From a virus: a DNA stretch of 10,010 nucleotides. The stretch lies in UHGV virus genome UHGV-0197950; one strand, given 5' to 3'. A program made the translations under genes and the position numbers. Shown in pieces: positions 218 through 10,010 of the stretch; position 1 is the first letter of the stretch; each line of letters starts with the position of its first letter. Under the pieces are notes generated by a model that was not told the origin of the DNA, made no database searches, and saw only the letters and a list, made by a program, of their open reading frames with translations.

Positions 218-241
218 TAGATGATAGTTATTTATCATCTA
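218..241. repeat. Perfect 9-bp inverted repeat TAGATGATA-N6-TATCATCTA upstream of the integrase gene; candidate recombination-core or regulator-binding site
   Basis: Read directly: 218-226 tagatgata, spacer gttatt, 233-241 tatcatcta (exact reverse complement). Its position upstream of a P4-type int is where att or arm sites are expected. Function is inferred. Confidence 0.35.
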
Positions 242-332: not shown

Positions 333-404
333 CACGGTTTGCCCTTGTACGATGCACGGTGTAGTCAATGGTGTAGTTAATTTTGATGACCGGAAACGCG
401 AAAC

Positions 405-1643
405 ATGAGCAGCGCAATTCATAGACTTAGCGACACTCTTTTACGAAAATTAAGCGGATCACCAACCACAAAAAACGCCTTTTTTAATGACGGTGGCAAT
501 CTTAGCGTAAGACATTCCACCAGCGGCCTGTTAACCTGGTATTTCACTTACAGGGCCGGAACTGGTAGGCAGGTATCACCGGAACGTCTGAGACTGGGCA
601 ATTATCCCGATCTGAGTCTGAAAGCAGCCAGGGAAAAAGCAGCACAGTGTCGCGCCTGGCTGGCTGAGGGGAAAAATCCGCGCTATGAGCTTAATCGTGC
701 TGTACAGGATGCGTTAGCCCCCGTGACAGTTAAGGAAGCGCTCACTTACTGGCTTGAATCGTATGCAAAGGAAAAGCGCACTGACTACGAATCACTGAAA
801 AGCCGGATCAATAAACACATAATCAGCCAGATTGGCGCTTTGCCGTTGGAAAAATGCGAGCTACGGCACTGGTTGGCATGTTTTGACCAGATGGCAAAGC
901 GAAGCCCAGTATCTGCCGGATTTTTGCTACAGGTATGCAAACAGGCGCTTAAGTACTGCCGAAAACGACGATACGCAATCAGCAACGTTCTTGATGATAT
1001 GGTTGTCGGTGATGTGGGAAAAAAAGCAGAAGTGAGCGAGCGCGTACTAACAAATAAGGAGCTTGGGGAATTACTCCGCGCCCTGGATGACAAAATATTC
1101 CCGCCATACTACAGCGCCCTAATTCGCCTCCTGATTGTTTTTGGATGCCGTACCACTGAGCTAAGGCGCTCTGAGGTGCAGGAGTGGGATTTTAAAGAAA
1201 TGCTCTGGACAGTACCGAAGGAGCACAGCAAAACGAAGGTCGCCATATTCAGGCCAATACCGGAAAGCATTTTGCCGTTCGTCACGCAACTGGTGGAGCA
1301 GAACAGACACACAGGCTTATTGCTTGGTGAACTGAAAGGACAATCTTCGGTAGCAGAGTACGGAAGAACAGCGCACAGACGAATTAATCAAGCCCCCTGG
1401 ACGTTACACGATATCCGGCACACATTTACAACCATGCTGAACGATTTAGGCGTGGATCCGCATATTGTCGAGCAGCTTACAGCCCACCAGATGCCAGGGA
1501 TGCAACGAGTCTATAACCACTCCCGCTACCTTGATGCAAAACGTGATGCTCTTAATCTATGGGTAGACCGTCTCGAGCTTCTCCAGAACAATGATGAAAA
1601 AATCGTTGTTATGACCCCGCGAATTTACCCCCAAAATTCTTGA
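405..1643 (+). CDS. int: Site-specific tyrosine recombinase, P4-family integrase
   Basis: 412-aa ORF, ATG 405, TGA 1641-1643. C-terminal catalytic region has typical tyrosine-recombinase motifs (LHDIRHTFTT...HQMPGMQRVYNHSRYL) and the N-terminal region has the arm-binding/SAM-like organisation typical of P4-like integrases. First gene of the island next to a repeat-rich arm region. Confidence 0.9.
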   Translation: MSSAIHRLSDTLLRKLSGSPTTKNAFFNDGGNLSVRHSTSGLLTWYFTYRAGTGRQVSPERLRLGNYPDLSLKAAREKAAQCRAWLAEGKNPRYELNRAVQDALAPVTVKEALTYWLESYAKEKRTDYESLKSRINKHIISQIGALPLEKCELRHWLACFDQMAKRSPVSAGFLLQVCKQALKYCRKRRYAISNVLDDMVVGDVGKKAEVSERVLTNKELGELLRALDDKIFPPYYSALIRLLIVFGCRTTELRRSEVQEWDFKEMLWTVPKEHSKTKVAIFRPIPESILPFVTQLVEQNRHTGLLLGELKGQSSVAEYGRTAHRRINQAPWTLHDIRHTFTTMLNDLGVDPHIVEQLTAHQMPGMQRVYNHSRYLDAKRDALNLWVDRLELLQNNDEKIVVMTPRIYPQNS

Positions 1644-2062
1644 CAAATTACGGCTGTTTTTTCTTTAAGAGATTACAGCCGTGAATAGATCTTAGAATAT
1701 CGGGGAATATCTGCAAATATCTTCTCTTTATATGTGTCAACTATCGAAAAAAATTGAAATGTCTTCTTCTGAGTTCTTATTCTCTGTTTCTTGATTGTTC
1801 CAACACCTGATGGTTTATCTATTTGTTTTTAATGAGGTAATTCAGGTGTCATGCCAAATGACGACATTTTTTGTTGCGTCGCTTAAAAACTCGTGACACG
1901 ATTTTAAACACTAACGAGCTTCTACGAACCTTAGCGAACAAAGCCTTTAGCATGGTTGTGTTTTTAATTTAATAGGTGAAAAAGAATCTAAGTAATATCC
2001 GATCTCATATATCTACAGCTAAGAGAAAAGTTTATATACGTAATTTTTATGTAGGTTTTTGT

Positions 2063-2272
2063 ATGCGTGAAATAAATGAAGATCGCGTAATCCGTGAGGA
2101 TGAATGTCGTAAGTTAACTGGAGTGTGTCGCACTACACGCTACGAACTGGAGAAAAAAGGGAGCTTTCCGTCTCGCCGTAATCTTGGTGGGCGTTCTGTA
2201 GGTTGGCTGCTGTCCGAGGTTATGGAATGGGTTAAAAGCCGGGATCGCATTAATTCAGGTAAGGCAGCGTAA
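2063..2272 (+). CDS. alpA: AlpA-family (Phage_AlpA / MerR-type HTH) transcriptional regulator
   Basis: ~69 aa from ATG 2063: MREINEDRVIREDECRKLTGVCRTTRYELEKKGSFPSRRNLGGRSVGWLLSEVMEWVKSR, matching the AlpA pattern (TG-SR-TIY...G-FP...LG-R-VGW...EV--W). The track ORF starts at 1976 (GTG) but that N-terminal extension lies in AT-rich DNA; the start is uncertain. Stop TAA 2270-2272. Confidence 0.75.
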   Translation: MREINEDRVIREDECRKLTGVCRTTRYELEKKGSFPSRRNLGGRSVGWLLSEVMEWVKSRDRINSGKAA

Positions 2273-2299
2273 AGGGGAGCATATGACATATAAAACAAA

Positions 2300-2319
2300 G
2301 GCGACCGGGGGCGGTCGCC
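2300..2319 (-). terminator. GC-rich perfect hairpin (GGCGACCG-GGGG-CGGTCGCC); possible terminator for leftward transcription from the repressor gene, or for alpA
   Basis: 8-bp perfect stem at 2300-2307 / 2312-2319. On the minus strand it is followed by a U-rich run (CTTTGTTTTA); on the plus strand it lies 28 nt after the alpA stop with no U-tract. Confidence 0.35.
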
Positions 2320-2623
2320 AATGGATACACACTAAACTTGAACGCATCACCAACAATGCCACATTTGCGGCTGGTGGGCAATGTGATCAGTCAGATTTGG
2401 TTCGTTCCAAGGTTTGCAACGAGAGCTTTTTCCTGTGCTCTTTAAGGAATTTCTCAAGAGCAAACGAACAAGGTGCGAATCTTTCTGATTCATGTTCATG
2501 CGCTATATTTTTGCGTCGTCTCTTACGAGTTGGTGATGGTGTTTTGGTTGATTCTGTGTCGCTCATGGTGCTGTCCTGTAAAGCAATGCGCCTGCGTTCC
2601 TCAAACTATGGCGCTGATAGTGG

Positions 2624-2929
2624 CTATTCCTGCTCTTTGACCTTGCGTCGCTGGAGTTCTTCACGCGCGACGGTGACGAGTTGCCCGATCTCCTCGGCGG
2701 CTTTGACTCCGATTTTTTCCACCTGCGCTAGGGCATCGAGCGAAGAAACCAGGAGGTTTTCTCCGCTTCCTTCTGCCTGGCGGCGGGCGATTTCACCGCG
2801 CATGGCGGTTACTATGAATCCGGCGTTGCTTTCACCGTCCAGTTTTACGGATTCCATGCCTTCAATAACATCATGCGGGATCCGAGCTGTCAGTGATTGT
2901 GATTTTGCGTTTTTTGAACCTGTAGCCAT
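2624..2929 (-). CDS. Putative ribbon-helix-helix-type DNA-binding repressor (candidate island immunity/maintenance regulator)
   Basis: 101 aa from ATG (minus) at 2929 with SD GAGAGGA 6 nt upstream: MATGSKNAKSQSLTARIPHDVIEGMESVKLDGESNAGFIVTAMRGEIARRQ..., i.e. an N-terminal beta-strand/helix pattern typical of RHH (Arc/CopG-like) proteins and a charged helical C-terminus. The track start at 2944 is a TTG. Divergent from a region with two palindromic operators. Family assignment is by pattern only. Confidence 0.55.
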   Translation of the reverse strand: MATGSKNAKSQSLTARIPHDVIEGMESVKLDGESNAGFIVTAMRGEIARRQAEGSGENLLVSSLDALAQVEKIGVKAAEEIGQLVTVAREELQRRKVKEQE

Positions 2930-2950
2930 CTGTAATCCTCTCAATGAAAG

Positions 2951-3027
2951 TGTAAGACAATATACACATAAAAAGTCTTACATAAAAGCATTGACATGTA
3001 AGCCACCTATAAATAAAGTTGCTTACA
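2951..3027. promoter_or_regulatory. Divergent control region with two palindromic operators (TGTAAGAC-N16-GTCTTACA and TGTAAGC-N17-GCTTACA) overlapping a TTGACA -35 element
   Basis: Read directly: 2951-2958 tgtaagac / 2975-2982 gtcttaca; 2997-2003 tgtaagc / 3021-3027 gcttaca; TTGACA at 2991-2996 with a -10-like TAAAGT 17 nt downstream (3014-3019) reading towards the + strand gene at 3126. Confidence 0.55.
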
Positions 3028-3125
3028 CCTTGTTAATGCAAGGTGCAGAAACGACGAAACCCCGCACTGTAGGAGCAGTAACGGGGCTTCTAACCACCAA
3101 CGATAGCAAGATTATCGAGGCAGCT

Positions 3126-3329
3126 ATGAGAAATCATACCATACACCCGCAAGGGCGGGACTCGTACAACCTGAATAAATACATCTGGCGTTTTATCGCC
3201 CTGAGCACCGCACAACCGCGCGTGATTCACATCGTGGCCACCAGCGAACAGGAAGCACGCCAGCAATCCCCGGCTGGCTGCGTGATGGTATTCGCCGCCC
3301 GTATTCGTCAGGGGGTGTGCCATGCCTGA
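3126..3329 (+). CDS. Small hypothetical protein (67 aa); first gene of the rightward operon; possibly an Icd-like cell-division-inhibitor-family protein
   Basis: ATG 3126 with GAGG SD 5 nt upstream, in frame with the end of the long 2283-3329 ORF: MRNHTIHPQGRDSYNLNKYIWRFIALSTAQPRVIHIVATSEQEARQQSPAGCVMVFAARIRQGVCHA. The Icd-like label is a recollection, not verified. Confidence 0.45.
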   Translation: MRNHTIHPQGRDSYNLNKYIWRFIALSTAQPRVIHIVATSEQEARQQSPAGCVMVFAARIRQGVCHA

Positions 3330-3642
3330 TATGTCAAATTACCAGTACCTGATTAATCCGCATTTTAACTGTGAGCATGATATTGCTAAAAAGGTTTATT
3401 CCGCTGCGGATGGGGCTACTGACAATATATCAATGGCTGTTGCGTCAATTGGTAGCCTGATGTGGCATGCGTCAGAAAATGAGGACTATGACGAAAAGGC
3501 CATGCGCATTGATATGGGTAATATCGGTTTGTTACTGGCAATGCTTGGACATTTTGATATTTCGTTACGGTGCACCATTGAAAATGCCACAGATGCATTA
3601 AATGCTATAAAGAAAGCGAATACTGATTCAAATCGGGGATAA
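3322..3642 (+). CDS. Hypothetical protein (106 aa)
   Basis: ORF overlapping the upstream gene stop by 8 nt (ATG 3322; alternative ATG 3331), i.e. operon-coupled. Protein-like composition; no motif recognised. Confidence 0.55.
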   Translation: MPDMSNYQYLINPHFNCEHDIAKKVYSAADGATDNISMAVASIGSLMWHASENEDYDEKAMRIDMGNIGLLLAMLGHFDISLRCTIENATDALNAIKKANTDSNRG

Positions 3643-3648
3643 ATAATC

Positions 3649-3948
3649 ATGAGAACGTATTTATCTGGCTTGACTGCCAGCGGTTATGCACACCCCCAAA
3701 TTATCCCCGGCGCTATTTATCTGGATAAGAACGGTAACAGAGTAACGGTAAAAGAACTGATGTTTGACCGTGTGTATTTTATCCGTGATGGCTATTCATT
3801 TCTTAGTTCGCTGAACGTGGAGATCTTTATTTGCAGATTCCGGCGGGAAATCCCGACTTCCAGAAATAACCATGTGTCACGTGTGGATGTGGATAAAAAA
3901 CTACAGGAACTGAAAAACATGATTGCCGCGTGGAGAGAGCAGAAATGA
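3649..3948 (+). CDS. Hypothetical protein (99 aa)
   Basis: ATG 3649 preceded by GGGGA. Its stop TGA 3946-3948 overlaps ATG 3945 of the replication gene (ATGA coupling). No motif recognised. Confidence 0.55.
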   Translation: MRTYLSGLTASGYAHPQIIPGAIYLDKNGNRVTVKELMFDRVYFIRDGYSFLSSLNVEIFICRFRREIPTSRNNHVSRVDVDKKLQELKNMIAAWREQK

Positions 3949-5762
3949 AAAAAGCGCCAAATTTAAAACACCAGCCGCGTGACAAAATGACGGAAGTCAT
4001 CATTTTTGCGGGTAGTGATGCGTGGGCACATGCGAAGCAGTGGCAGGAACAGGACGGGCGACTGGCTGGCGATAACGTGCCACCTGTCTGGCTTGGAGAG
4101 CAACAACTTGCCGAACTGGACAACCTGCAAATCGTACCGGACGGACGCTATCGCGTGCGTCTCTACCAGGCGGGGTTATTGCGTCCGGGGCTTGTTAATA
4201 CCATCGGGCAGAAACTGGCAGCGGCAGGTGTCAGGGATGCTGATTATTACCCTGAAGGAATGCACAGCCAGAAACGGGAGAACTGGCGCGAATATCTGGA
4301 ACGTGAACGGGCAGAGCAGGCGGAAAAGAAAAAGGTAGTTGAACTGCCTGTAAAGAAAAAAGAGCGGGTAAAAGACGATAACGCTTCATCACTGGCGCTT
4401 AACCAGATGGGAGCAAGTCAACGCGGCGAAGTTCTCCTGGCACATTATGGCGGTGAACTGGCGATTCATGCTGACTCTGACACTGTTCACCATTACAACG
4501 GCGTTGTATGGGAGCCAGTACAGGATAAAGAATTACAGCGAGCTATGGCACAGATTTTCATTGATGCGGAGATCAGCTATTCGCAGAACGCCATTAAATC
4601 GGCGGTCGATACCATGAAGTTAAGTTTGCCTGTTATGGGGAATACAGCCCGTAACCTGATTGGATTCAGTAACGGGGTATTTGATACCAGAACAGGTAAT
4701 TTTCGGGAGCATAACAAAAACGACTGGTTGTTAATTGCCAGTGAATTACCTTTCAGCCCACCAGCAGAGGGGGAAACGCTGGCAACACATGCGCCGAATT
4801 TCTGGAAGTGGTTACGCCGTTCGGTGGCTGAGAATGACCGCAAGGCGGATCGCGTACTGGCTGCATTATTCATGGTGCTGGCGAACCGGTACGACTGGCA
4901 GTTATTCATTGAGGTAACAGGTCCAGGGGGAAGTGGTAAAAGCGTGATGGCGGAGATTTGCACCATGCTGGCGGGTAAGGTTAATACAGTATCAGCGAGC
5001 ATGAAGGCGCTGGAAGATGCAAGGGAACGCGCGTTAGTGGTTGGCTTTTCGCTGATTATCATGCCGGATATGACCCGCTACGCTGGTGATGGGGCGGGAA
5101 TTAAGGCTATTACAGGCGGTGACAAGGTGGCAATCGACCCAAAACATAAAGCCCCATATTCAACGCGTATCCCGGCAGTAGTGCTGGCGGTTAACAATAA
5201 CGCTATGTCATTCAGTGACCGCAGTGGGGGGATCTCGCGACGTCGGGTGATATTCAATTTTTCGGAAGTTGTACCGGAGAACGAACGCGATTCAATGCTG
5301 GCGGAAAAAATAGAAGGTGAGCTGGCGGTAGTGATTCGTCATCTGCTTACACGGTTTGCTGACCAGGACGAAGCCAGACGCCTTTTATATGAGCAGCAGA
5401 AATCAGAAGAAGCACTCGCGATAAAGCGTGAAGGTGATTCGCTGGTGGACTTCTGCGGCTATCTCATGGCGTCGGTAATGTGTGATGGCCTGTTAGTGGG
5501 TAATGCTGAAATTGTGCCATTCAGCCCGCGCAGGTATCTCTATCATGCCTATCTGGCTTATATGAAGGCACATGGGTTTGGTAAACCTGTAACACTGACG
5601 CGCTTCGGTAAAGATATGCCGGGGGCAATGGCGGAATATGGCAGGGAGTATATGAAACGGAAAACGAAGCACGGTTTGCGTTCAAACGTGACACTGACGG
5701 AGGAATCAGAAGACTGGATGCCATCATGTGTATCGGTCACTAATGACGATAGCAAAAATTAA
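3945..5762 (+). CDS. Replication initiation protein, phage/plasmid primase-helicase family (P-loop NTPase; pri-rep-like)
   Basis: 605 aa from ATG 3945 (SD GGAGAGAG 3932-3939); the track start 3930 is a GTG. Walker A motif GPGGSGKS (EVTGPGGSGKSVMAE) and a downstream hydrophobic stretch plus acidic residues (LVVGFSLIIMPD) consistent with Walker B. Size and position immediately upstream of an iteron origin match satellite/PICI pri-rep genes. Confidence 0.8.
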   Translation: MKKAPNLKHQPRDKMTEVIIFAGSDAWAHAKQWQEQDGRLAGDNVPPVWLGEQQLAELDNLQIVPDGRYRVRLYQAGLLRPGLVNTIGQKLAAAGVRDADYYPEGMHSQKRENWREYLERERAEQAEKKKVVELPVKKKERVKDDNASSLALNQMGASQRGEVLLAHYGGELAIHADSDTVHHYNGVVWEPVQDKELQRAMAQIFIDAEISYSQNAIKSAVDTMKLSLPVMGNTARNLIGFSNGVFDTRTGNFREHNKNDWLLIASELPFSPPAEGETLATHAPNFWKWLRRSVAENDRKADRVLAALFMVLANRYDWQLFIEVTGPGGSGKSVMAEICTMLAGKVNTVSASMKALEDARERALVVGFSLIIMPDMTRYAGDGAGIKAITGGDKVAIDPKHKAPYSTRIPAVVLAVNNNAMSFSDRSGGISRRRVIFNFSEVVPENERDSMLAEKIEGELAVVIRHLLTRFADQDEARRLLYEQQKSEEALAIKREGDSLVDFCGYLMASVMCDGLLVGNAEIVPFSPRRYLYHAYLAYMKAHGFGKPVTLTRFGKDMPGAMAEYGREYMKRKTKHGLRSNVTLTEESEDWMPSCVSVTNDDSKN

Positions 5763-5776
5763 ACTTATGGAATAAC

Positions 5777-6006
5777 TGTTCACCACTGTTCACCCTGTCA
5801 TAAATATTTTTTATATCAGTATATTATAGGGTGAACAGTTATTTATGAACTGTTCACCAAACTATTCACTGTTCACCTTTTTGATTGTTTATTGAGCTTC
5901 AAGGGTGAACAGTGGTGAACAGTTGGTGAATAGTTTTTGTGAAACTGTTCACCCCTTAACATTATGAATTAAAAGATAAAATATCAAAAGGTGAACAGGT
6001 GAAGGG
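5777..6006. repeat. Iteron array / putative replication origin: about 10 copies of TGTTCACC (both orientations) flanking an AT-rich stretch
   Basis: TGTTCACC at 5777, 5787, 5851, 5870, 5946; GGTGAACA at 5830, 5904, 5914, 5990; degenerate copies at 5861, 5925, 5998; AT-rich 5795-5828. Lies immediately after the replication gene stop (5762). Confidence 0.75.
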
Positions 6007-6049
6007 TTAAAACGCAAAAATTTTAATTTACTGCTGTGAGATAAAGCCT

Positions 6050-6295
6050 ATGACAGCGAAGCACATAAAAAAATCACAATCGCACGCCCTTGATTTGACG
6101 GAACACTGGTTAAGGGTGTCGATAAAAATCATCGACCGCAACGCCGGGGAAGGATATGCGAAAGCACATCCCGAACTGATTAGCGCATTCATGACAACGG
6201 CAGCTGCAAACTTTGCCACGCTGACAGAACGGGAGATTGCCGAAGCGGAACAGGTGACAACCATCAACGTTAAAACCGGAGAGCAGACAGCATGA
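6050..6295 (+). CDS. Hypothetical protein (81 aa), translationally coupled to ssb
   Basis: ATG 6050; stop TGA 6293-6295 overlaps ssb ATG 6292 (ATGA). No motif recognised. Confidence 0.5.
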   Translation: MTAKHIKKSQSHALDLTEHWLRVSIKIIDRNAGEGYAKAHPELISAFMTTAAANFATLTEREIAEAEQVTTINVKTGEQTA

Positions 6296-6714
6296 CAGCA
6301 CAGATAGCGGCTTACGGACGGCTGGTGGCTGATCCGCAGTTAAAGACCACCAGCAAGGGTACACAAATGGCGATGGCTAGTATGGCGGTCCCCCTTCCGT
6401 GCAGCCAGGCAGATGACGGAACGGCGATGATGTGGTTATCCGTCCTGGCGTTTGGCAGACAGGCCGACGCACTGGCAAAACACCACAAAGGCGAACTGGT
6501 GAGCGTGGCGGGTAACATGCAGGTAAGCCAGTGGACAGGCCAGAACGGCGAAACGCGGCAGGGCTGGCAGGTTATCGCAGACAGCGTGATCAGTGCGCGA
6601 ACAGCGCGACCGGGCGGCAAAAAAGGCCAGCAGGGGCAGGCCACTGACGCACTGAACAGGGCAAAACAACAGTCGGGGAATGATGATCCGTACGGCGATA
6701 ATATACCGTTTTAA
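6292..6714 (+). CDS. ssb: Single-stranded DNA-binding protein (SSB-like, OB-fold) with acidic C-terminal tip ...DDPYGDNIPF
   Basis: 140 aa; N-terminal region follows the E. coli SSB pattern (IAAYGRLVADPQLKTTSKG... / WLSVLAFGRQADALAKHHKGELVSVAGNMQVSQWTGQNGETRQGWQVIADSV), a Gly/Gln-rich linker, and a C-terminal IPF tail resembling SSB DDDIPF. Confidence 0.8.
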   Translation: MTAQIAAYGRLVADPQLKTTSKGTQMAMASMAVPLPCSQADDGTAMMWLSVLAFGRQADALAKHHKGELVSVAGNMQVSQWTGQNGETRQGWQVIADSVISARTARPGGKKGQQGQATDALNRAKQQSGNDDPYGDNIPF

Positions 6715-6731
6715 ATTCTGCAAACAAAAAG

Positions 6732-6760
6732 ATGCCGGAAAAAAATAGATTTTCCGGCAT
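6732..6760. terminator. Perfect 11-bp-stem hairpin (ATGCCGGAAAA-N7-TTTTCCGGCAT) between the replication and head modules; possible bidirectional terminator or insulator
   Basis: Arms 6732-6742 and 6750-6760 are exact reverse complements; a T-rich run follows on the minus-strand side (CTTTTTGTTTG); 18 nt after the ssb stop. Confidence 0.4.
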
Positions 6761-6925
6761 GCTACATAAATCCCGACCAAAGGAAGTAAATACATTAACA
6801 CGAATTATCAGCACTGAAGTTGTCGCGGCATATTTTATACAACATTGCACTTGGTTGCATGTATTCGCATAGCAGACATCGGTAATAGAATATATTCACA
6901 ATTATTTGTAATGAATGTAAAGAGG

Positions 6926-7972
6926 ATGAGTATGGTTGACTTATATTCGCCTACACAGCTTGTGCAGGTGGCTAATGCTGAAGATGTGCAAAAAAAATTA
7001 AATGCGTTGTTTACCAGTTTGTTTTTCACTCGCTCGGTAATGTTTGAATCGAGAGACATTATTCTTGATACGATCGACGATCCAAATATCCCGATCGCGG
7101 CGTTTTGCTCTCCTATGGTGGGCAGTAAAGTTTCACGAGATGAGGGATACGAATCAAAAACAATTCGCCCTGGCTATATGAAACCGAAAAGCAGCATTGA
7201 TCCAAATAAGTTAGCTGTGCGCCCTGCTGGTGTATCACCTGAGCAATACAATGCTTTTGGAGCGCGTAATATTAAAGTTAAACAGGCGATTGTAAATCAG
7301 GCTAAAGCTATTCGTGCACGTATTGAATGGCTTGCCGTTCAGGCAATCACAACGGGGAAAAATATCATTGAGGGCGATGGTATTGAACGTTATGAGCTGG
7401 ACTGGAATATTAAACCACAAAATATCATCACTCAGTCTGGCGGTGCTGAGTGGTCAGGTAAGGATAAAGAAGCTTTTGATCCAAATGATGATATTGAGAG
7501 CTACGCAGAATTTAGTGAGGGCGTCACTAATATTATCATTATGGGCGGTAATGTATGGAAGAAATACCGTTCATTCAGGGCGATAAAAGAGGCTCTGGAT
7601 ACTCGTCGTGGTTCTAATTCCGAACTGGAAACGGCCCTTAAAGACCTTGGTGATTCGGTGAGTTTTAAAGGGTATATGGGCGATGTTGCGATTGTTGTTT
7701 ACAGCGGGCGTTATACCGACGAGGACGGAACTGAAAAATATTTCCTTGATCCTGATTTGATGGTGCTTGGCAATACGGCTCTTCAGGGGATTGTCGCTTA
7801 TGGCGGTATTCAGGATCCGGAGCTAATCCGGATGGGGCTGACTAAAGCCGAACTTGCACCGAAAAACTATATTGTGCCTGGTGATCCGGCTATTGAATAT
7901 GTGCAGACACATTCAGCACCACAGCCAATACCGGCCCGCATCAATCGTTTTGTTACCGTTCGCATTGGCTAA
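6926..7972 (+). CDS. Major capsid protein, phage lambda gpE family
   Basis: Begins MSMVDLYSPTQLV (lambda gpE begins MSMYTTAQLL) and shares long blocks with gpE as recalled: NIITQSGGAEWSGKDKEAFDPNDDIESYA, LDTRRGSNSELETALKDLG, GDVAIVVYSG, MVLGNT, PGDPA. Start may be ATG 6926 or 6932 (AGAGG abuts 6926). Stop TAA 7970-7972. Confidence 0.9.
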   Translation: MSMVDLYSPTQLVQVANAEDVQKKLNALFTSLFFTRSVMFESRDIILDTIDDPNIPIAAFCSPMVGSKVSRDEGYESKTIRPGYMKPKSSIDPNKLAVRPAGVSPEQYNAFGARNIKVKQAIVNQAKAIRARIEWLAVQAITTGKNIIEGDGIERYELDWNIKPQNIITQSGGAEWSGKDKEAFDPNDDIESYAEFSEGVTNIIIMGGNVWKKYRSFRAIKEALDTRRGSNSELETALKDLGDSVSFKGYMGDVAIVVYSGRYTDEDGTEKYFLDPDLMVLGNTALQGIVAYGGIQDPELIRMGLTKAELAPKNYIVPGDPAIEYVQTHSAPQPIPARINRFVTVRIG

Positions 7973-7981
7973 GGGGGAGCA

Positions 7982-8323
7982 ATGGCTACTCATTACACTG
8001 AACTCATGTCTGGCACTGAAGCACTGGTTACTACGCTGGGGATATTTTCAGCCAATAAAGGGGTAATACCTGCGTTTACGCCACTGATGCAGGAAGATGC
8101 AACTGGTGCGCTAGTGGTATGGGATGGAACGAGCGCAGGCAAAGCGGTTTATGTTTCCGCTGTACAAATCGACACAGCGAAAAAAACACAGGCACAGGTT
8201 TATAAGACAGGTGTTTTAAATGTTGATGCTCTGAACTGGCCTGAGTCTGTAAAAGAACTGTCGGCAAAGGTTGCCGCGTTTGTTGGCTCAGGTATTTCTG
8301 TTCAGCCGCTGGCTCGTGTGTAA
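7982..8323 (+). CDS. Head decoration protein, phage lambda gpD family
   Basis: 113 aa with SD AAGGGGGAG; motifs shared with gpD as recalled: TPLM, LVVWDGT, YKTG, WPE, AAFVGSGISV. Lies immediately downstream of the capsid gene (order E then D, reversed relative to lambda). Confidence 0.8.
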   Translation: MATHYTELMSGTEALVTTLGIFSANKGVIPAFTPLMQEDATGALVVWDGTSAGKAVYVSAVQIDTAKKTQAQVYKTGVLNVDALNWPESVKELSAKVAAFVGSGISVQPLARV

Positions 8324-8334
8324 AGGGGGATACA

Positions 8335-8718
8335 ATGCAGAATCATTACAATGACCTTAAGCCAATTGCCGAAATGATGTATCCGGATCCAGCAGTAGAG
8401 GAATTAAAGGCTATTGCTGACAAAATGCGTTTAAGTGAACGCCTTGTTGATATGAATCAGGTGATGGAACTTACTACCCTTAGCCGTCGCACATTGCTAA
8501 ACCTTGAGGCTCGCGGAGAGTTCCCCGAACGCGTACAGGTTACGGAAGGGCGTAAGGCCTGGTATTTAAGTGAAGTGATCGACTGGATAAACAATATTCC
8601 TCGAGCTTCTGAATATTGCCGCGTACCTGTCCCAAAAAAGCCAGATGCGGCGCTATGCCTCAAGATTGAGCGTGTACGTCGCAATGCACGGGATGGTCGC
8701 TATAAGTTGATTGGTTGA
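8335..8718 (+). CDS. AlpA-type HTH DNA-binding protein with N-terminal extension (127 aa); candidate late/packaging regulator
   Basis: SD AAAGGGGGA; C-terminal half has an AlpA-like HTH (MELTTLSRRTLLNLEARGEFPERVQVTEGRKAWYLSEVIDWINN). Sits between the decoration gene and cos. Confidence 0.7.
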   Translation: MQNHYNDLKPIAEMMYPDPAVEELKAIADKMRLSERLVDMNQVMELTTLSRRTLLNLEARGEFPERVQVTEGRKAWYLSEVIDWINNIPRASEYCRVPVPKKPDAALCLKIERVRRNARDGRYKLIG

Positions 8719-8741
8719 TGAAATTAGGGCCCGTTCTGGCT

Positions 8742-8810
8742 GGCGGGTCCTTTCCGGCGATCCGGTAGGCTACGGGGCGGCGACCTCGCGGTTTTTCGCT
8801 ATTTATGAGC
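8742..8810. other. Lambda-type cohesive-end site (cosQ/cosN region); cosN 12-nt GGGCGGCGACCT at 8775-8786
   Basis: Island GGCGGGTCCTTTCCGGCGATCCGGTAGGCTACG|GGGCGGCGACCT|CGCGGTTTTTCGCTATTTATGAG versus lambda right end ...CGGGTCCTTTCCGGTGATCCGACAGGTTACG and left end GGGCGGCGACCTCGCGGGTTTTCGCTATTTATGAA as recalled. Identity falls away after about +35, so the cosB region is different. About 145 bp upstream of a Nu1-like gene, as in lambda. Confidence 0.8.
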
Positions 8811-8818
8811 TTTTTCAG

Positions 8819-8833
8819 GGTGGTGGTGGTGGT
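8819..8833. repeat. (GGT)5 trinucleotide tract followed by TTTGTTGTTTG, inside the cosB-equivalent region
   Basis: Read directly: ggtggtggtggtggt at 8819-8833. Downstream are ACACCAACACACCAACC repeats (8877-8893), loosely complementary in composition. Confidence 0.6.
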
Positions 8834-8919
8834 TTTGTTGTTTGCTCTATCTCCATGAATAAAAAGGGAAAGATAACACCAACACACCAACCTGAAACCT
8901 TGACCAAGTTGGGATATTG

Positions 8920-9462
8920 ATGAAATCGCACCTGATGAACAAAAAAACCATGGCGCAAAGCTGCCGGGTAAGTGCTACAGCATTCGACAAGTGGGGAGTG
9001 ACTCCCGTTGAACGTAAAGGCCGTGAGGCGTTTTATGATGTTGCCAGCGTGATAGACAATAGGGTTAACAATGCAATTAGCCAGCTTACAAACGACAAAG
9101 GCGAGATTGATGATGATGAACTCTTACGAGTCAGGATCAGATTACTGACAGCACAGGCGGAGGCGCAGGAACTTAAAAACGAGCGCGATCGCGGTGACGT
9201 GATTGATACAGAGTTTTGCATGTACGCGCTTTCAAAACTGGCGAGTCAGATTTCATCAATCATGGACAGCCTCCCGCTTACTATGCAAAGGAGCTTCCCA
9301 CAGATGACCCCCGTCATGCTGGATGGCCTGAAAAAAGAAGTTGTCAGAGCCTGTAACGCATGCACAAAACTTGATGAAAACATCCCGCGAATGCTGTCCG
9401 ATTATCTGATGGAAACTACCGGAAATGTGCCTGATAAGTTTCAGCCGGATAAAGACAAGTAA
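8920..9462 (+). CDS. Terminase small subunit, lambda Nu1-like
   Basis: Product aligns by eye with lambda Nu1: N-terminus ...NKKTMAQSCRVSATAFDKWGVTPVERKGREAFYDVASVI versus NKKQLADIFGASIRTIQNWQEQGMPVLRGGGKGNEVLYDSAAVI; C-terminal part RLLTAQAEAQELKNERDRGDVIDTEFCMYALSKLASQISSIMDSLPLTMQRSFPQ versus RLTRAQADAQELKNARDSAEVVETAFCTFVLSRIAGEIASILDGLPLSVQRRFPE. Start ambiguous (TTG 8917, ATG 8920, ATG 8935). No TerL gene follows. Confidence 0.85.
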   Translation: MKSHLMNKKTMAQSCRVSATAFDKWGVTPVERKGREAFYDVASVIDNRVNNAISQLTNDKGEIDDDELLRVRIRLLTAQAEAQELKNERDRGDVIDTEFCMYALSKLASQISSIMDSLPLTMQRSFPQMTPVMLDGLKKEVVRACNACTKLDENIPRMLSDYLMETTGNVPDKFQPDKDK

Positions 9463-9480
9463 CGTAGTGCACAATGACCG

Positions 9481-9502
9481 AAGCCAGTTTACTGACTGGC
9501 TT
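9481..9502 (+). terminator. Hairpin (AAGCCAGT-N6-ACTGGCTT) 19 nt after the terS stop; possible terminator or RNA-stability element
   Basis: Perfect 8-bp stem read directly; the downstream sequence is only weakly T-rich (TTCAGCGTTGCG). Confidence 0.3.
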
Positions 9503-9698
9503 TCAGCGTTGCGCTGGTGGGCGTTATGCGTCAGTGATGAACAAAAAACAATCGAAATCGACACCGAAAAATAAAACATCAAGTCATATCAATATATTGC
9601 ATTGGTGGTGATGACGAATAAAAATGCAAAAACTAGCCTTTTTCCGCGATGCTCCCGCCCCGTGGCAGGGCACCCCACAAGGAGGACCCGCCATCACT

Positions 9699-10010
9699 AT
9701 GGAGGCCATGACCATGACCATGACCATGACCGAGACCGAAGCGCTCGGGATAATCCGCAGTATTACCGGAATCAGCCAGCAGGCTGGCGAACAGGAGGCC
9801 ACGCAGCCGGACAGCGTGATAGCCGAAAATTACGCGCGTGTTGTTGCTGAGGTGATGCGCCGTGATGGTATTGAGCTTAACGGCGTGGATATGCGCAACA
9901 TACGAACCAGAGTCCTTGAGTTGCTGGCATACCGTCGCCGTTCTCAACAACGGAGGGAGAGCGCGAAAAGTACTTACCAGTGGAAGAAGCCGGAACGACT
10001 GCGGCGGTAA
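9699..10010 (+). CDS. Hypothetical protein (~103 aa) beginning in a hexanucleotide repeat (MEAMTMTMTMTETE...)
   Basis: ORF ends TAA 10008-10010. Candidate starts are ATG 9699 (SD AAGGAGGA 9679-9686) or ATG 9714 (SD GGAGG 9701-9705). The track start 9624 lies in probable non-coding DNA. No confident family assignment. Confidence 0.5.
   Translation: MEAMTMTMTMTETEALGIIRSITGISQQAGEQEATQPDSVIAENYARVVAEVMRRDGIELNGVDMRNIRTRVLELLAYRRRSQQRRESAKSTYQWKKPERLRR
9707..9730 (+). repeat. (CATGAC)4 hexanucleotide tandem repeat, with a degenerate fifth unit to 9736, at the 5' end of the last gene
   Basis: Read directly: catgac x4 at 9707-9730 then cgagac; encodes MT dipeptide repeats and provides four in-frame ATG codons. 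Confidence 0.7.

Follow-up and report, generated by a model that had tools for sequence, protein, structure and literature searches.

The 10,010-nucleotide stretch of DNA listed as UHGV virus genome UHGV-0197950 (hereafter the window, meaning the whole stretch) contains nearly all of a satellite element of about 10.5 kb, inserted in the Escherichia coli chromosome between cspD/yljB and clpS. The element is best read as a classical, non-capsid-forming phage-inducible chromosomal island (PICI) of the cos-type, Gram-negative kind, with its own small terminase subunit (TerS), a reading to which we assign a probability of about 0.88. That it is a PICI, taken alone, can be said with slightly more confidence still. 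It is a routine member of an already described E. coli PICI family. Gram-negative PICIs were defined by Fillol-Salom et al. 2018 (PMC6092414), and SatelliteFinder describes a “Type A PICI” by its integrase, regulator, primase-replicase, capsid and TerS (de Sousa et al. 2023, PMC10085698); 375 elements have all five of these core components, 97% of them in E. coli (PMC10085698). All five are present in the window, and the tail, lysis, portal and connector genes that the model excludes are missing.

A first-pass annotation, made from the letters of the sequence, had proposed a PICI-like satellite in which a P4-type integration and replication core is fused to a lambdoid cos/TerS/capsid module, and every part of that proposal is supported. 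Its description of the architecture as chimeric is right about gene content, but the label overstates the case, since this is the standard enterobacterial PICI layout. The possibility of a new lineage, which it had left standing unless near-identical elements proved to be annotated already, is gone: EcCIIHE3034, EcCICFT073 and the SatelliteFinder Type A PICI have all been annotated or published.

Chromosomal location and boundaries

The window is E. coli chromosome. As the whole-window search proposed in the first pass reveals, it is 99.9% identical to strain W619 over its full length (megablast), and at least 80% of it is present in 81 of 5,426 complete E. coli genomes. The island measures 10,468 bp in W619, within the range of about 8-15 kb expected for a Gram-negative PICI. 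RefSeq annotation of the W619 flanks places macB, cspD and the tiny gene yljB on the left and clpS and clpA on the right, with no surrounding prophage at the locus. Within the island, neither the open reading frame (ORF) listing nor Pfam, PHROG or RefSeq annotation contains genes for tail, lysis, portal, head-tail connector or large terminase (TerL). With these chromosomal flanks and these absences, the window does not map inside a full-length prophage, the outcome that was to have overturned the satellite interpretation.

An 11-bp exact direct repeat, ATGATAGTTAT, marks the two ends. It occurs exactly twice in the 34-kb W619 locus (L001), against 0.03 copies expected: one copy is the left attachment (att) core, attL, and the other, attR, lies outside the window at L001 22689-22699, about 690 bp past the window end. 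When the flanks are joined at this core, the rebuilt empty site is found with contiguous 100% identity in other E. coli genomes, and in 5,057 of the 5,426 genomes a single location accounts for at least 80% of it. Comparison with an empty site, the way in which the first pass had suggested that attL and attR be located, thus delivers both an exact repeat and an intact empty site. The start at position 405 given there does not hold, however: the element begins at the attL core at 221-231, some 180 bp upstream, and ends about 690 bp beyond the window. An integrase gene at one end and a specific, non-prophage att site, as expected of a PICI, are therefore both in place. The same core at cspD-clpS is listed for EcCIIHE3034 (10.5 kb) and EcCI18098 (10.8 kb) (PMC6092414 Table S1). 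A tRNA scan found no tRNA genes, which excludes a tRNA att site.

Tandem GGTGTAGTTAAT repeats inside both ends are likely to be integrase-binding sites of the arm type, as comparison with the annotated arm repeats of P4 attP suggests. The pair near attL (Table 1) is repeated just inside attR (L001 22594-22617), and the four copies of the arm-type repeat in L001, against 0.16 expected, all lie at the island ends. The att core also overlaps the stop codon of yljB, a 24-amino-acid gene at 150-224 of the window; integration regenerates this stop, so that the small gene stays intact.

Closest named relatives

Two named islands place the element within its family. The nearer is EcCIIHE3034 of strain IHE3034 (NC_017628.1 920272-930825; PMC6092414 Table S1), which has the same att core, the same cspD-clpS site and the same 10.5-kb size. 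Gene order is equal from int to the terminal ORF, the integrases share 99% identity, and identity is 97% across the window's first 2.66 kb. At the other end TerS is 87% identical and the cos-TerS region, including the site cosB, about 89%. The two differ in a mosaic middle, where identity is down to 48% for Pri-Rep, which has other iterons, 55% for the capsid protein and 54% for the decoration protein, and the protein after the decoration gene is unrelated; EcCIIHE3034 also has a second, inverted cos, which the window element lacks.

EcCICFT073 is the experimentally studied prototype (PMC6092414, PMC6739421). It is collinear with the window through int, alpA, the minus-strand small ORF and YlcI/YnfO gene, the icd-like gene, DUF4222, pri-rep and ori, and then through a hypothetical gene, ssb, the capsid gene c1499, the decoration gene c1500, another hypothetical gene, a packaging-specificity gene and a terminal ORF (71% identical). 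It likewise combines a lambda-type cosQ/cosN with a non-phage cosB. Unlike the window element, with its 180-amino-acid Nu1-type TerS, EcCICFT073 has no TerS and relies on RppA (144 amino acids), which remodels the helper TerS to recognise the island cosB; it further differs in its att site (ycfD-phoQ), in the presence of perC and in having two cos sites.

A third group, helper-embedded PICIs of the 11capE type (PMC10111431; L007, L008), shares a capsid, decoration and helix-turn-helix (HTH) module that is 95-98% identical in amino acids. These islands have another integrase, are inserted in the E capsid gene of a lambdoid prophage and carry either a TerS of another type (36% identical) or a TIR-domain gene. 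Assignment of the window element to them was rejected: its flanks are cspD/yljB and clpS, and only the capsid module is common to both. Differences in cargo among the helper-embedded islands (L008 10886-12028; L007 10533-11084 and 2764-3585), with a TIR-domain gene in the place of TerS or the 36% identical TerS together with DUF2971 genes, show module swapping at the packaging/cargo end.

Integration, regulation and replication

One gene map (Table 1) emerges consistently from the ORF listing and from Pfam, PHROG, NCBIfam and RefSeq annotation. Every gene of the first-pass order is found where it was put: int, alpA, a divergent pair, pri-rep, ori, ssb, capsid, decoration, HTH, cos and terS. 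The integrase is 24% identical to P4 Int. Adjoining int, where a PICI is expected to have a regulator of AlpA, MerR or Stl type, the gene at 2063-2272 encodes an AlpA protein that is 43% identical to P4 Vis/orf88; in Gram-negative PICIs AlpA is the inducer-responsive activator (PMC6092414).

Residues 145-595 of Pri-Rep are 50% identical to residues 320-771 of P4 alpha, and the N-terminal primase domain of P4 alpha is missing; identity to the Pri-Rep of EcCICFT073 is 49%. An iteron origin directly 3' of pri-rep is a defining PICI feature, in which iteron sets are expected to flank an AT-rich stretch; here the primase-replicase gene is followed immediately by iterons in two orientations, with AT-rich stretches interspersed. 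The octamer TGTTCACC occurs there in nine exact copies and at least one near copy, at 5777-5997 and in both orientations, and has one other exact copy in the window, which confirms the iteron origin called in the first pass. This octamer is identical to the annotated “ori type 1” repeat of P4 (ori and crr), and the origins of EcCICFT073 and EcCIIHE3034 contain no copy of it. The likenesses of Pri-Rep, AlpA and integrase to their P4 counterparts, with the exact P4 octamer, bear out a P4-type integration and replication core. The identical iterons suggest that replication cross-talk or incompatibility with P4-like satellites is possible, both kinds of satellite being common in E. coli. Downstream of the origin, the pair formed by an 81-amino-acid gene and ssb, which encodes a single-strand DNA-binding protein (SSB), is also present in EcCICFT073 (where ssb is c1497).

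The cos site and TerS

When aligned to the lambda cos junction and to the left end of N15, the island cos follows lambda from cosQ across the nick site and some 35 bp further, after which it diverges completely; cosN is identical to that of lambda. The segment at 8743-8820 is 89-91% identical to cosQ/cosN of 96 lambdoid phage records, and GGGCGGCGACCT at 8775-8786 is the lambda cohesive end, as the first-pass annotation had said. Unlike EcCICFT073 and IHE3034, the island has no second cos, even with 1-2 mismatches allowed. Beyond the cosQ/cosN match, 8821-8916 has no match in the phage collection; it is about 90% conserved with the cos1 region of EcCIIHE3034, including both arms of an inverted repeat and the GGTTTTGTTGTTTGC element that resembles the R3 position of N15, and it would serve as a satellite-specific cosB.

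The gene that follows encodes a full-length Nu1-type TerS. Over its whole length this protein shares 48% identity with N15 gp1 and 37% with lambda Nu1, the N-terminal DNA-binding region and the C-terminal half both being represented. Its ratio of nonsynonymous to synonymous substitution rates (dN/dS) is 0.2-0.27, and the cos-TerS module is found in 759 of the 5,426 genomes. Where a PICI is expected to have a TerS homolog, the cos or pac site of its helper, or both, this one has a Nu1-type TerS and a lambda-type cosN. In its logic the arrangement resembles that of the pac islands of Staphylococcus aureus (S. aureus pathogenicity islands, SaPIs), in which a satellite TerS homolog and the helper TerL select satellite DNA. 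The SaPIs, however, package by the headful (pac) mechanism, use unrelated proteins and add the inhibitor Ppi, whereas the window element is cos-based and Nu1-type and is known from sequence.

How would such an island gain access to the terminase of its helper? Judged by its domains, the island TerS probably binds cosB of the island itself and enlists helper TerL directly, although we hold this route with clearly less confidence than the identity of the element. The literature places TerL binding in the C-terminal half of Nu1, and the island TerS keeps the whole of that half, so that helper TerS should not be needed to reach TerL. A different mechanism in the same PICI would have the island TerS form mixed oligomers with helper TerS, as Rpp does, poisoning helper packaging and retargeting the complex to the island cosB, with helper TerS essential to the process. 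The island gene sits in the exact rppA slot of EcCICFT073, which itself requires helper TerS, and its product is well conserved with lambda Nu1 in the central region for oligomerisation, making hetero-oligomers plausible; but the protein has no sequence similarity to RppA or RppC, and its intact TerL-binding half also argues against this mechanism, which we regard as unlikely. That TerS might itself be an Rpp was rejected, as BLASTP against RppA gave E = 1.4 and no Rpp chain in the PDB appeared at E <= 1. Where an Rpp-type cos PICI (Fillol-Salom 2019) has rppA, this island has full-length TerS.

The (GGT)n tract at 8819-8835 varies in length: the window and EcCIIHE3034 are 6 bp longer there than W619, and this is the sole indel in 10 kb. 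The variant shifts the spacing between cosN and a putative R3-like TerS site. In lambda, shifts in spacing as small as 3 bp are reported to be detrimental to packaging (PMC9026076).

Capsid and decoration genes

The capsid protein is 55% identical to that of EcCICFT073 (c1499) and 41.5% to lambda E, and the decoration protein is 40% identical to lambda D. With the Nu1-type TerS, they account for the lambdoid head and packaging cassette of the first-pass annotation. Being homologs of c1499 and c1500, they also give the island the capsid or capsid-morphogenesis homolog looked for in a PICI. The solved structure closest to the capsid protein is PDB 3BQW (1e-121), deposited as “putative capsid protein of prophage”. 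This structure presumably derives from c1499 of CFT073, and the near-identical alignments agree. The HTH gene next in line is unrelated to the EcCIIHE3034 gene in the same slot and has copies 95-96% identical in helper-embedded PICIs.

Measured against alleles that are 2-16% divergent in protein, dN/dS is 0.055-0.08 for the capsid, decoration and HTH genes (about 0.06 for capsid, 0.06-0.08 for decoration). Such strong purifying selection on the capsid and decoration genes indicates that they are in use. The capsid/decoration module is present in 395 of the 5,426 genomes; of the 29 reference Gram-negative PICIs considered by Mageeney et al. 2023 (PMC10111431), 21 carry a capsid gene. In EcCICFT073, deletion of c1499 or c1500 changed neither interference nor transfer, and the island is packaged in full-size capsids.

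Could the island be making part of its own shell? The E-like and D-like proteins might co-assemble with helper portal, scaffold and protease into satellite-specific or satellite-biased shells. The element would then supply its own shell and DNA-recognition subunit and borrow portal, motor and tail, and, with a self-sufficient TerS, would represent a sublineage between classical and capsid-forming PICIs. We consider this doubtful. The role of these conserved homologs is in any case a question for the whole family and is not peculiar to this window.

Other classifications

Very improbable is a cryptic lambdoid prophage in decay, immobile now and left with a handful of its genes for head and packaging. 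The element does have lambda-like E, D, Nu1 and cos, but they run in the order E, D and then cos with Nu1 downstream, as against Nu1-A-W-B-C-Nu3-D-E in lambda, and the proteins are just 37-42% identical to those of lambda. The integration and replication genes are P4-type rather than lambdoid, the same compact layout is found at several att sites, its ORFs intact and under purifying selection, and the att repeats are exact.

Even less probable is a capsid-forming PICI, which makes its own capsid and steals only tails. Capsid protein, decoration protein and TerS are encoded, but ORF, Pfam and RefSeq annotations contain no portal, protease/scaffold, head-tail adaptor/connector, TerL or HNH genes, every ORF of useful size is assigned otherwise, and 10.5 kb falls short of the 15.4 kb of the prototype EcCIEDL933.

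A P4-like satellite that parasitises P2-type helpers has equally little to recommend it. The P4-alpha-like helicase, the iteron octamer and the Vis-like AlpA are shared with P4, as are an arm-binding integrase and tandem att arm repeats, but of all P4 proteins only Int, Vis/orf88 and alpha gave a BLASTP match; with no homolog of Sid, Psu, Delta or Epsilon, the element is not a P4-like satellite. P4 depends on P2, whereas the window element has a lambda-type cos that matches lambdoid phages only and head genes of the lambda E and D types, so that its expected helper is lambdoid.

Proposed life cycle

For the cos-type PICI with its own TerS, the cycle can be outlined as follows. By the example of EcCICFT073, a lambdoid helper phage would bring about activation of AlpA. 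Int and AlpA would then excise the island at the ATGATAGTTAT core, where both the boundaries and the empty site are observed. Replication is expected to proceed from the P4-type origin of the island through the alpha-like Pri-Rep helicase and SSB, as pri-ori tests on EcCICFT073 suggest. The resulting concatemers would be cut and packaged by the helper large terminase at the lambda-identical cosN: the diverged N-terminal winged-helix domain of TerS may bind the satellite-specific cosB while its conserved C-terminal half recruits helper TerL, diverting packaging to the island.

Several points weigh against this reading. Induction, excision, replication and transfer by a helper are carried over from EcCICFT073, the only relative for which induction, excision, replication and high-frequency transfer have been shown. 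The interactions of TerS with cosB and with TerL rest on domain homology and on co-conservation of the cos region with TerS. Capsid and decoration knockouts have no phenotype in EcCICFT073. Finally, the minus-strand pair with the YlcI/YnfO gene breaks the “unidirectional rightward” rule for Gram-negative PICIs, although the same pair is present in EcCICFT073.

As a discovery the element carries little weight, since it adds another copy to a type of satellite already common and catalogued in E. coli, and a finder that uses the published five-component PICI model should class it as a PICI. It does draw attention to two gaps. One is how cos-type PICIs that have their own Nu1-like TerS, and not Rpp, capture the helper terminase: literature searches turned up no functional work on E. 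coli cos PICIs of the TerS type, and EcCIIHE3034 was found there in a supplementary table only. The other is the purpose of the conserved capsid and decoration homologs.

Gene map and minor features

Table 1. Features of the window, in order of position.
Feature	Position	Strand	Evidence or remark
attL core ATGATAGTTAT	221..231	+	overlaps yljB stop codon 222-224
Tandem GGTGTAGTYAAT pair	358..381	+	candidate arm-type integrase-binding site
Tyrosine integrase with arm-binding domain	405..1643	+	Pfam Phage_integrase 2.7e-18, Arm-DNA-bind_3 1.4e-16
AlpA-family regulator/excisionase	2063..2272	+	Pfam Phage_AlpA 4.8e-16; start as in W619 RefSeq
Intrinsic-terminator-like hairpin (GGCGACCG...CGGTCGCC then TTTGTTTTAT)	2300..2319	-	ends minus-strand gene pair
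Small gene, 59 amino acids	2387..2566	-	phrog_21027 5.2e-15; unannotated in W619 RefSeq
YlcI/YnfO-family protein	2624..2929	-	NCBIfam NF041551 4.7e-20, phrog_6522 1.3e-57; divergent from rightward operon
Divergent region, putatively regulatory	2930..3125		sigma-70-like promoter 2991-3019 (TTGACA-17-TAAAGT), TGTAAG/CTTACA repeats
icd-like protein, first gene of rightward replication operon	3126..3329	+	NCBIfam phage_ICD_like 5.3e-20, phrog_6196
Hypothetical protein	3322..3642	+	phrog_15327 2e-71; same-size positional counterpart in strain 190693 (L006)
DUF4222 protein	3649..3948	+	Pfam DUF4222 8.8e-17; directly upstream of primase gene in EcCICFT073 too
Pri-Rep, P4-alpha-type superfamily 3 (SF3) helicase and origin-binding protein	3945..5762	+	Pfam D5_N, DUF5906, Pox_D5
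Replication origin	5774..6008		two oppositely oriented TGTTCACC iteron sets, AT-rich stretches between
Hypothetical gene, 81 amino acids	6050..6295	+	phrog_1231 6e-49
SSB, single-strand DNA-binding protein	6292..6714	+	Pfam SSB 1.7e-15
Perfect 11-bp inverted repeat hairpin (ATGCCGGAAAA / TTTTCCGGCAT)	6732..6760		between ssb and capsid gene
Lambda-gpE-type major capsid protein homolog	6932..7972	+	Pfam Phage_cap_E 6.3e-41
Lambda-gpD-type head decoration protein homolog	7982..8323	+	Pfam HDPD 2.3e-15; PDB 1TD0 2.8e-16
Second AlpA-like HTH protein	8335..8718	+	Pfam Phage_AlpA 1.4e-8, phrog_2790 1.8e-48
Lambda-type cosQ/cosN	8743..8820	+	12-nt cohesive end GGGCGGCGACCT at 8775-8786
Putative satellite-specific cosB	8821..8916	+	inverted repeat 8813-8825 / 8885-8897, (GGT)n tract, N15-R3-like GGTTTTGTTGTTTGC
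Full-length Nu1-type TerS, 180 amino acids	8920..9462	+	Pfam Phage_Nu1 9.8e-23, phrog_57 1.2e-51
Conserved terminal gene, 94 amino acids	9726..10010	+	phrog_1561 7.5e-51; 71% identical to last EcCICFT073 gene

The 59-amino-acid ORF is probably a real gene missed by some annotations; counterparts by position are annotated in strain 190693 (L006 3773-3946) and in EcCICFT073 (L009 3243-3416). The region between the minus-strand pair and the rightward operon may be regulatory, as its consensus matches suggest. What the first-pass annotation called a repressor switch is just a divergent gene pair with a promoter-like site at 2991-3019; a repressor function for it is at most putative. The hairpin downstream of ssb may act as a transcriptional boundary or attenuator, separating the replication genes from those for capsid and packaging.

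The motif TAARGGGGR occurs three times in the window, against 0.2 copies expected, and three or more copies were reached in 0 of 200 shuffles. All three lie on stop codons, those of alpA, the capsid gene and the decoration gene. Downstream of the copies after the capsid and decoration genes, real genes start after 9-11 nt, and the capsid-decoration-HTH junctions are consistent with translational coupling. The tightly coupled late-gene translation read from these repeats in the first pass accordingly fits those junctions; it fails at 2270-2285, where the gene that ends is the early regulator alpA and the ORF that follows is spurious.

That ORF (2283-3329, 348 amino acids) was rejected as a gene. 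No Pfam or PHROG family matches it. It runs antisense to two supported minus-strand genes and crosses their predicted terminator, and is the icd-like frame merely left open upstream. Its N-terminal residues are unconserved in L006, the junction is missing from EcCICFT073 and the helper-embedded PICIs, and at this position in IHE3034 the annotation pipeline PGAP has nothing beyond a fragmentary BRO-N pseudogene.

About 690 bp beyond the window (L001 22005-22688) separate the last ORF from attR. This stretch has no convincing ORF and no Rfam match, in keeping with the whole island and its flanks, which gave no Rfam match at the gathering threshold. GC-rich hairpins are present in it, and TTGTTCG repeats and the arm-type repeat pair lie near attR. 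In EcCIIHE3034 the corresponding region holds that island's second, inverted cos together with a small ORF on the minus strand.

In strain Eco_70239 a copy of the island that is otherwise 99.5% identical is broken by an IS1 element. At the start of the terminal ORF, a hexanucleotide repeat, (ATGACC)4 at 9705-9730, encodes a Met-Thr repeat with several in-frame ATG codons, and could vary the start or length of the terminal protein.

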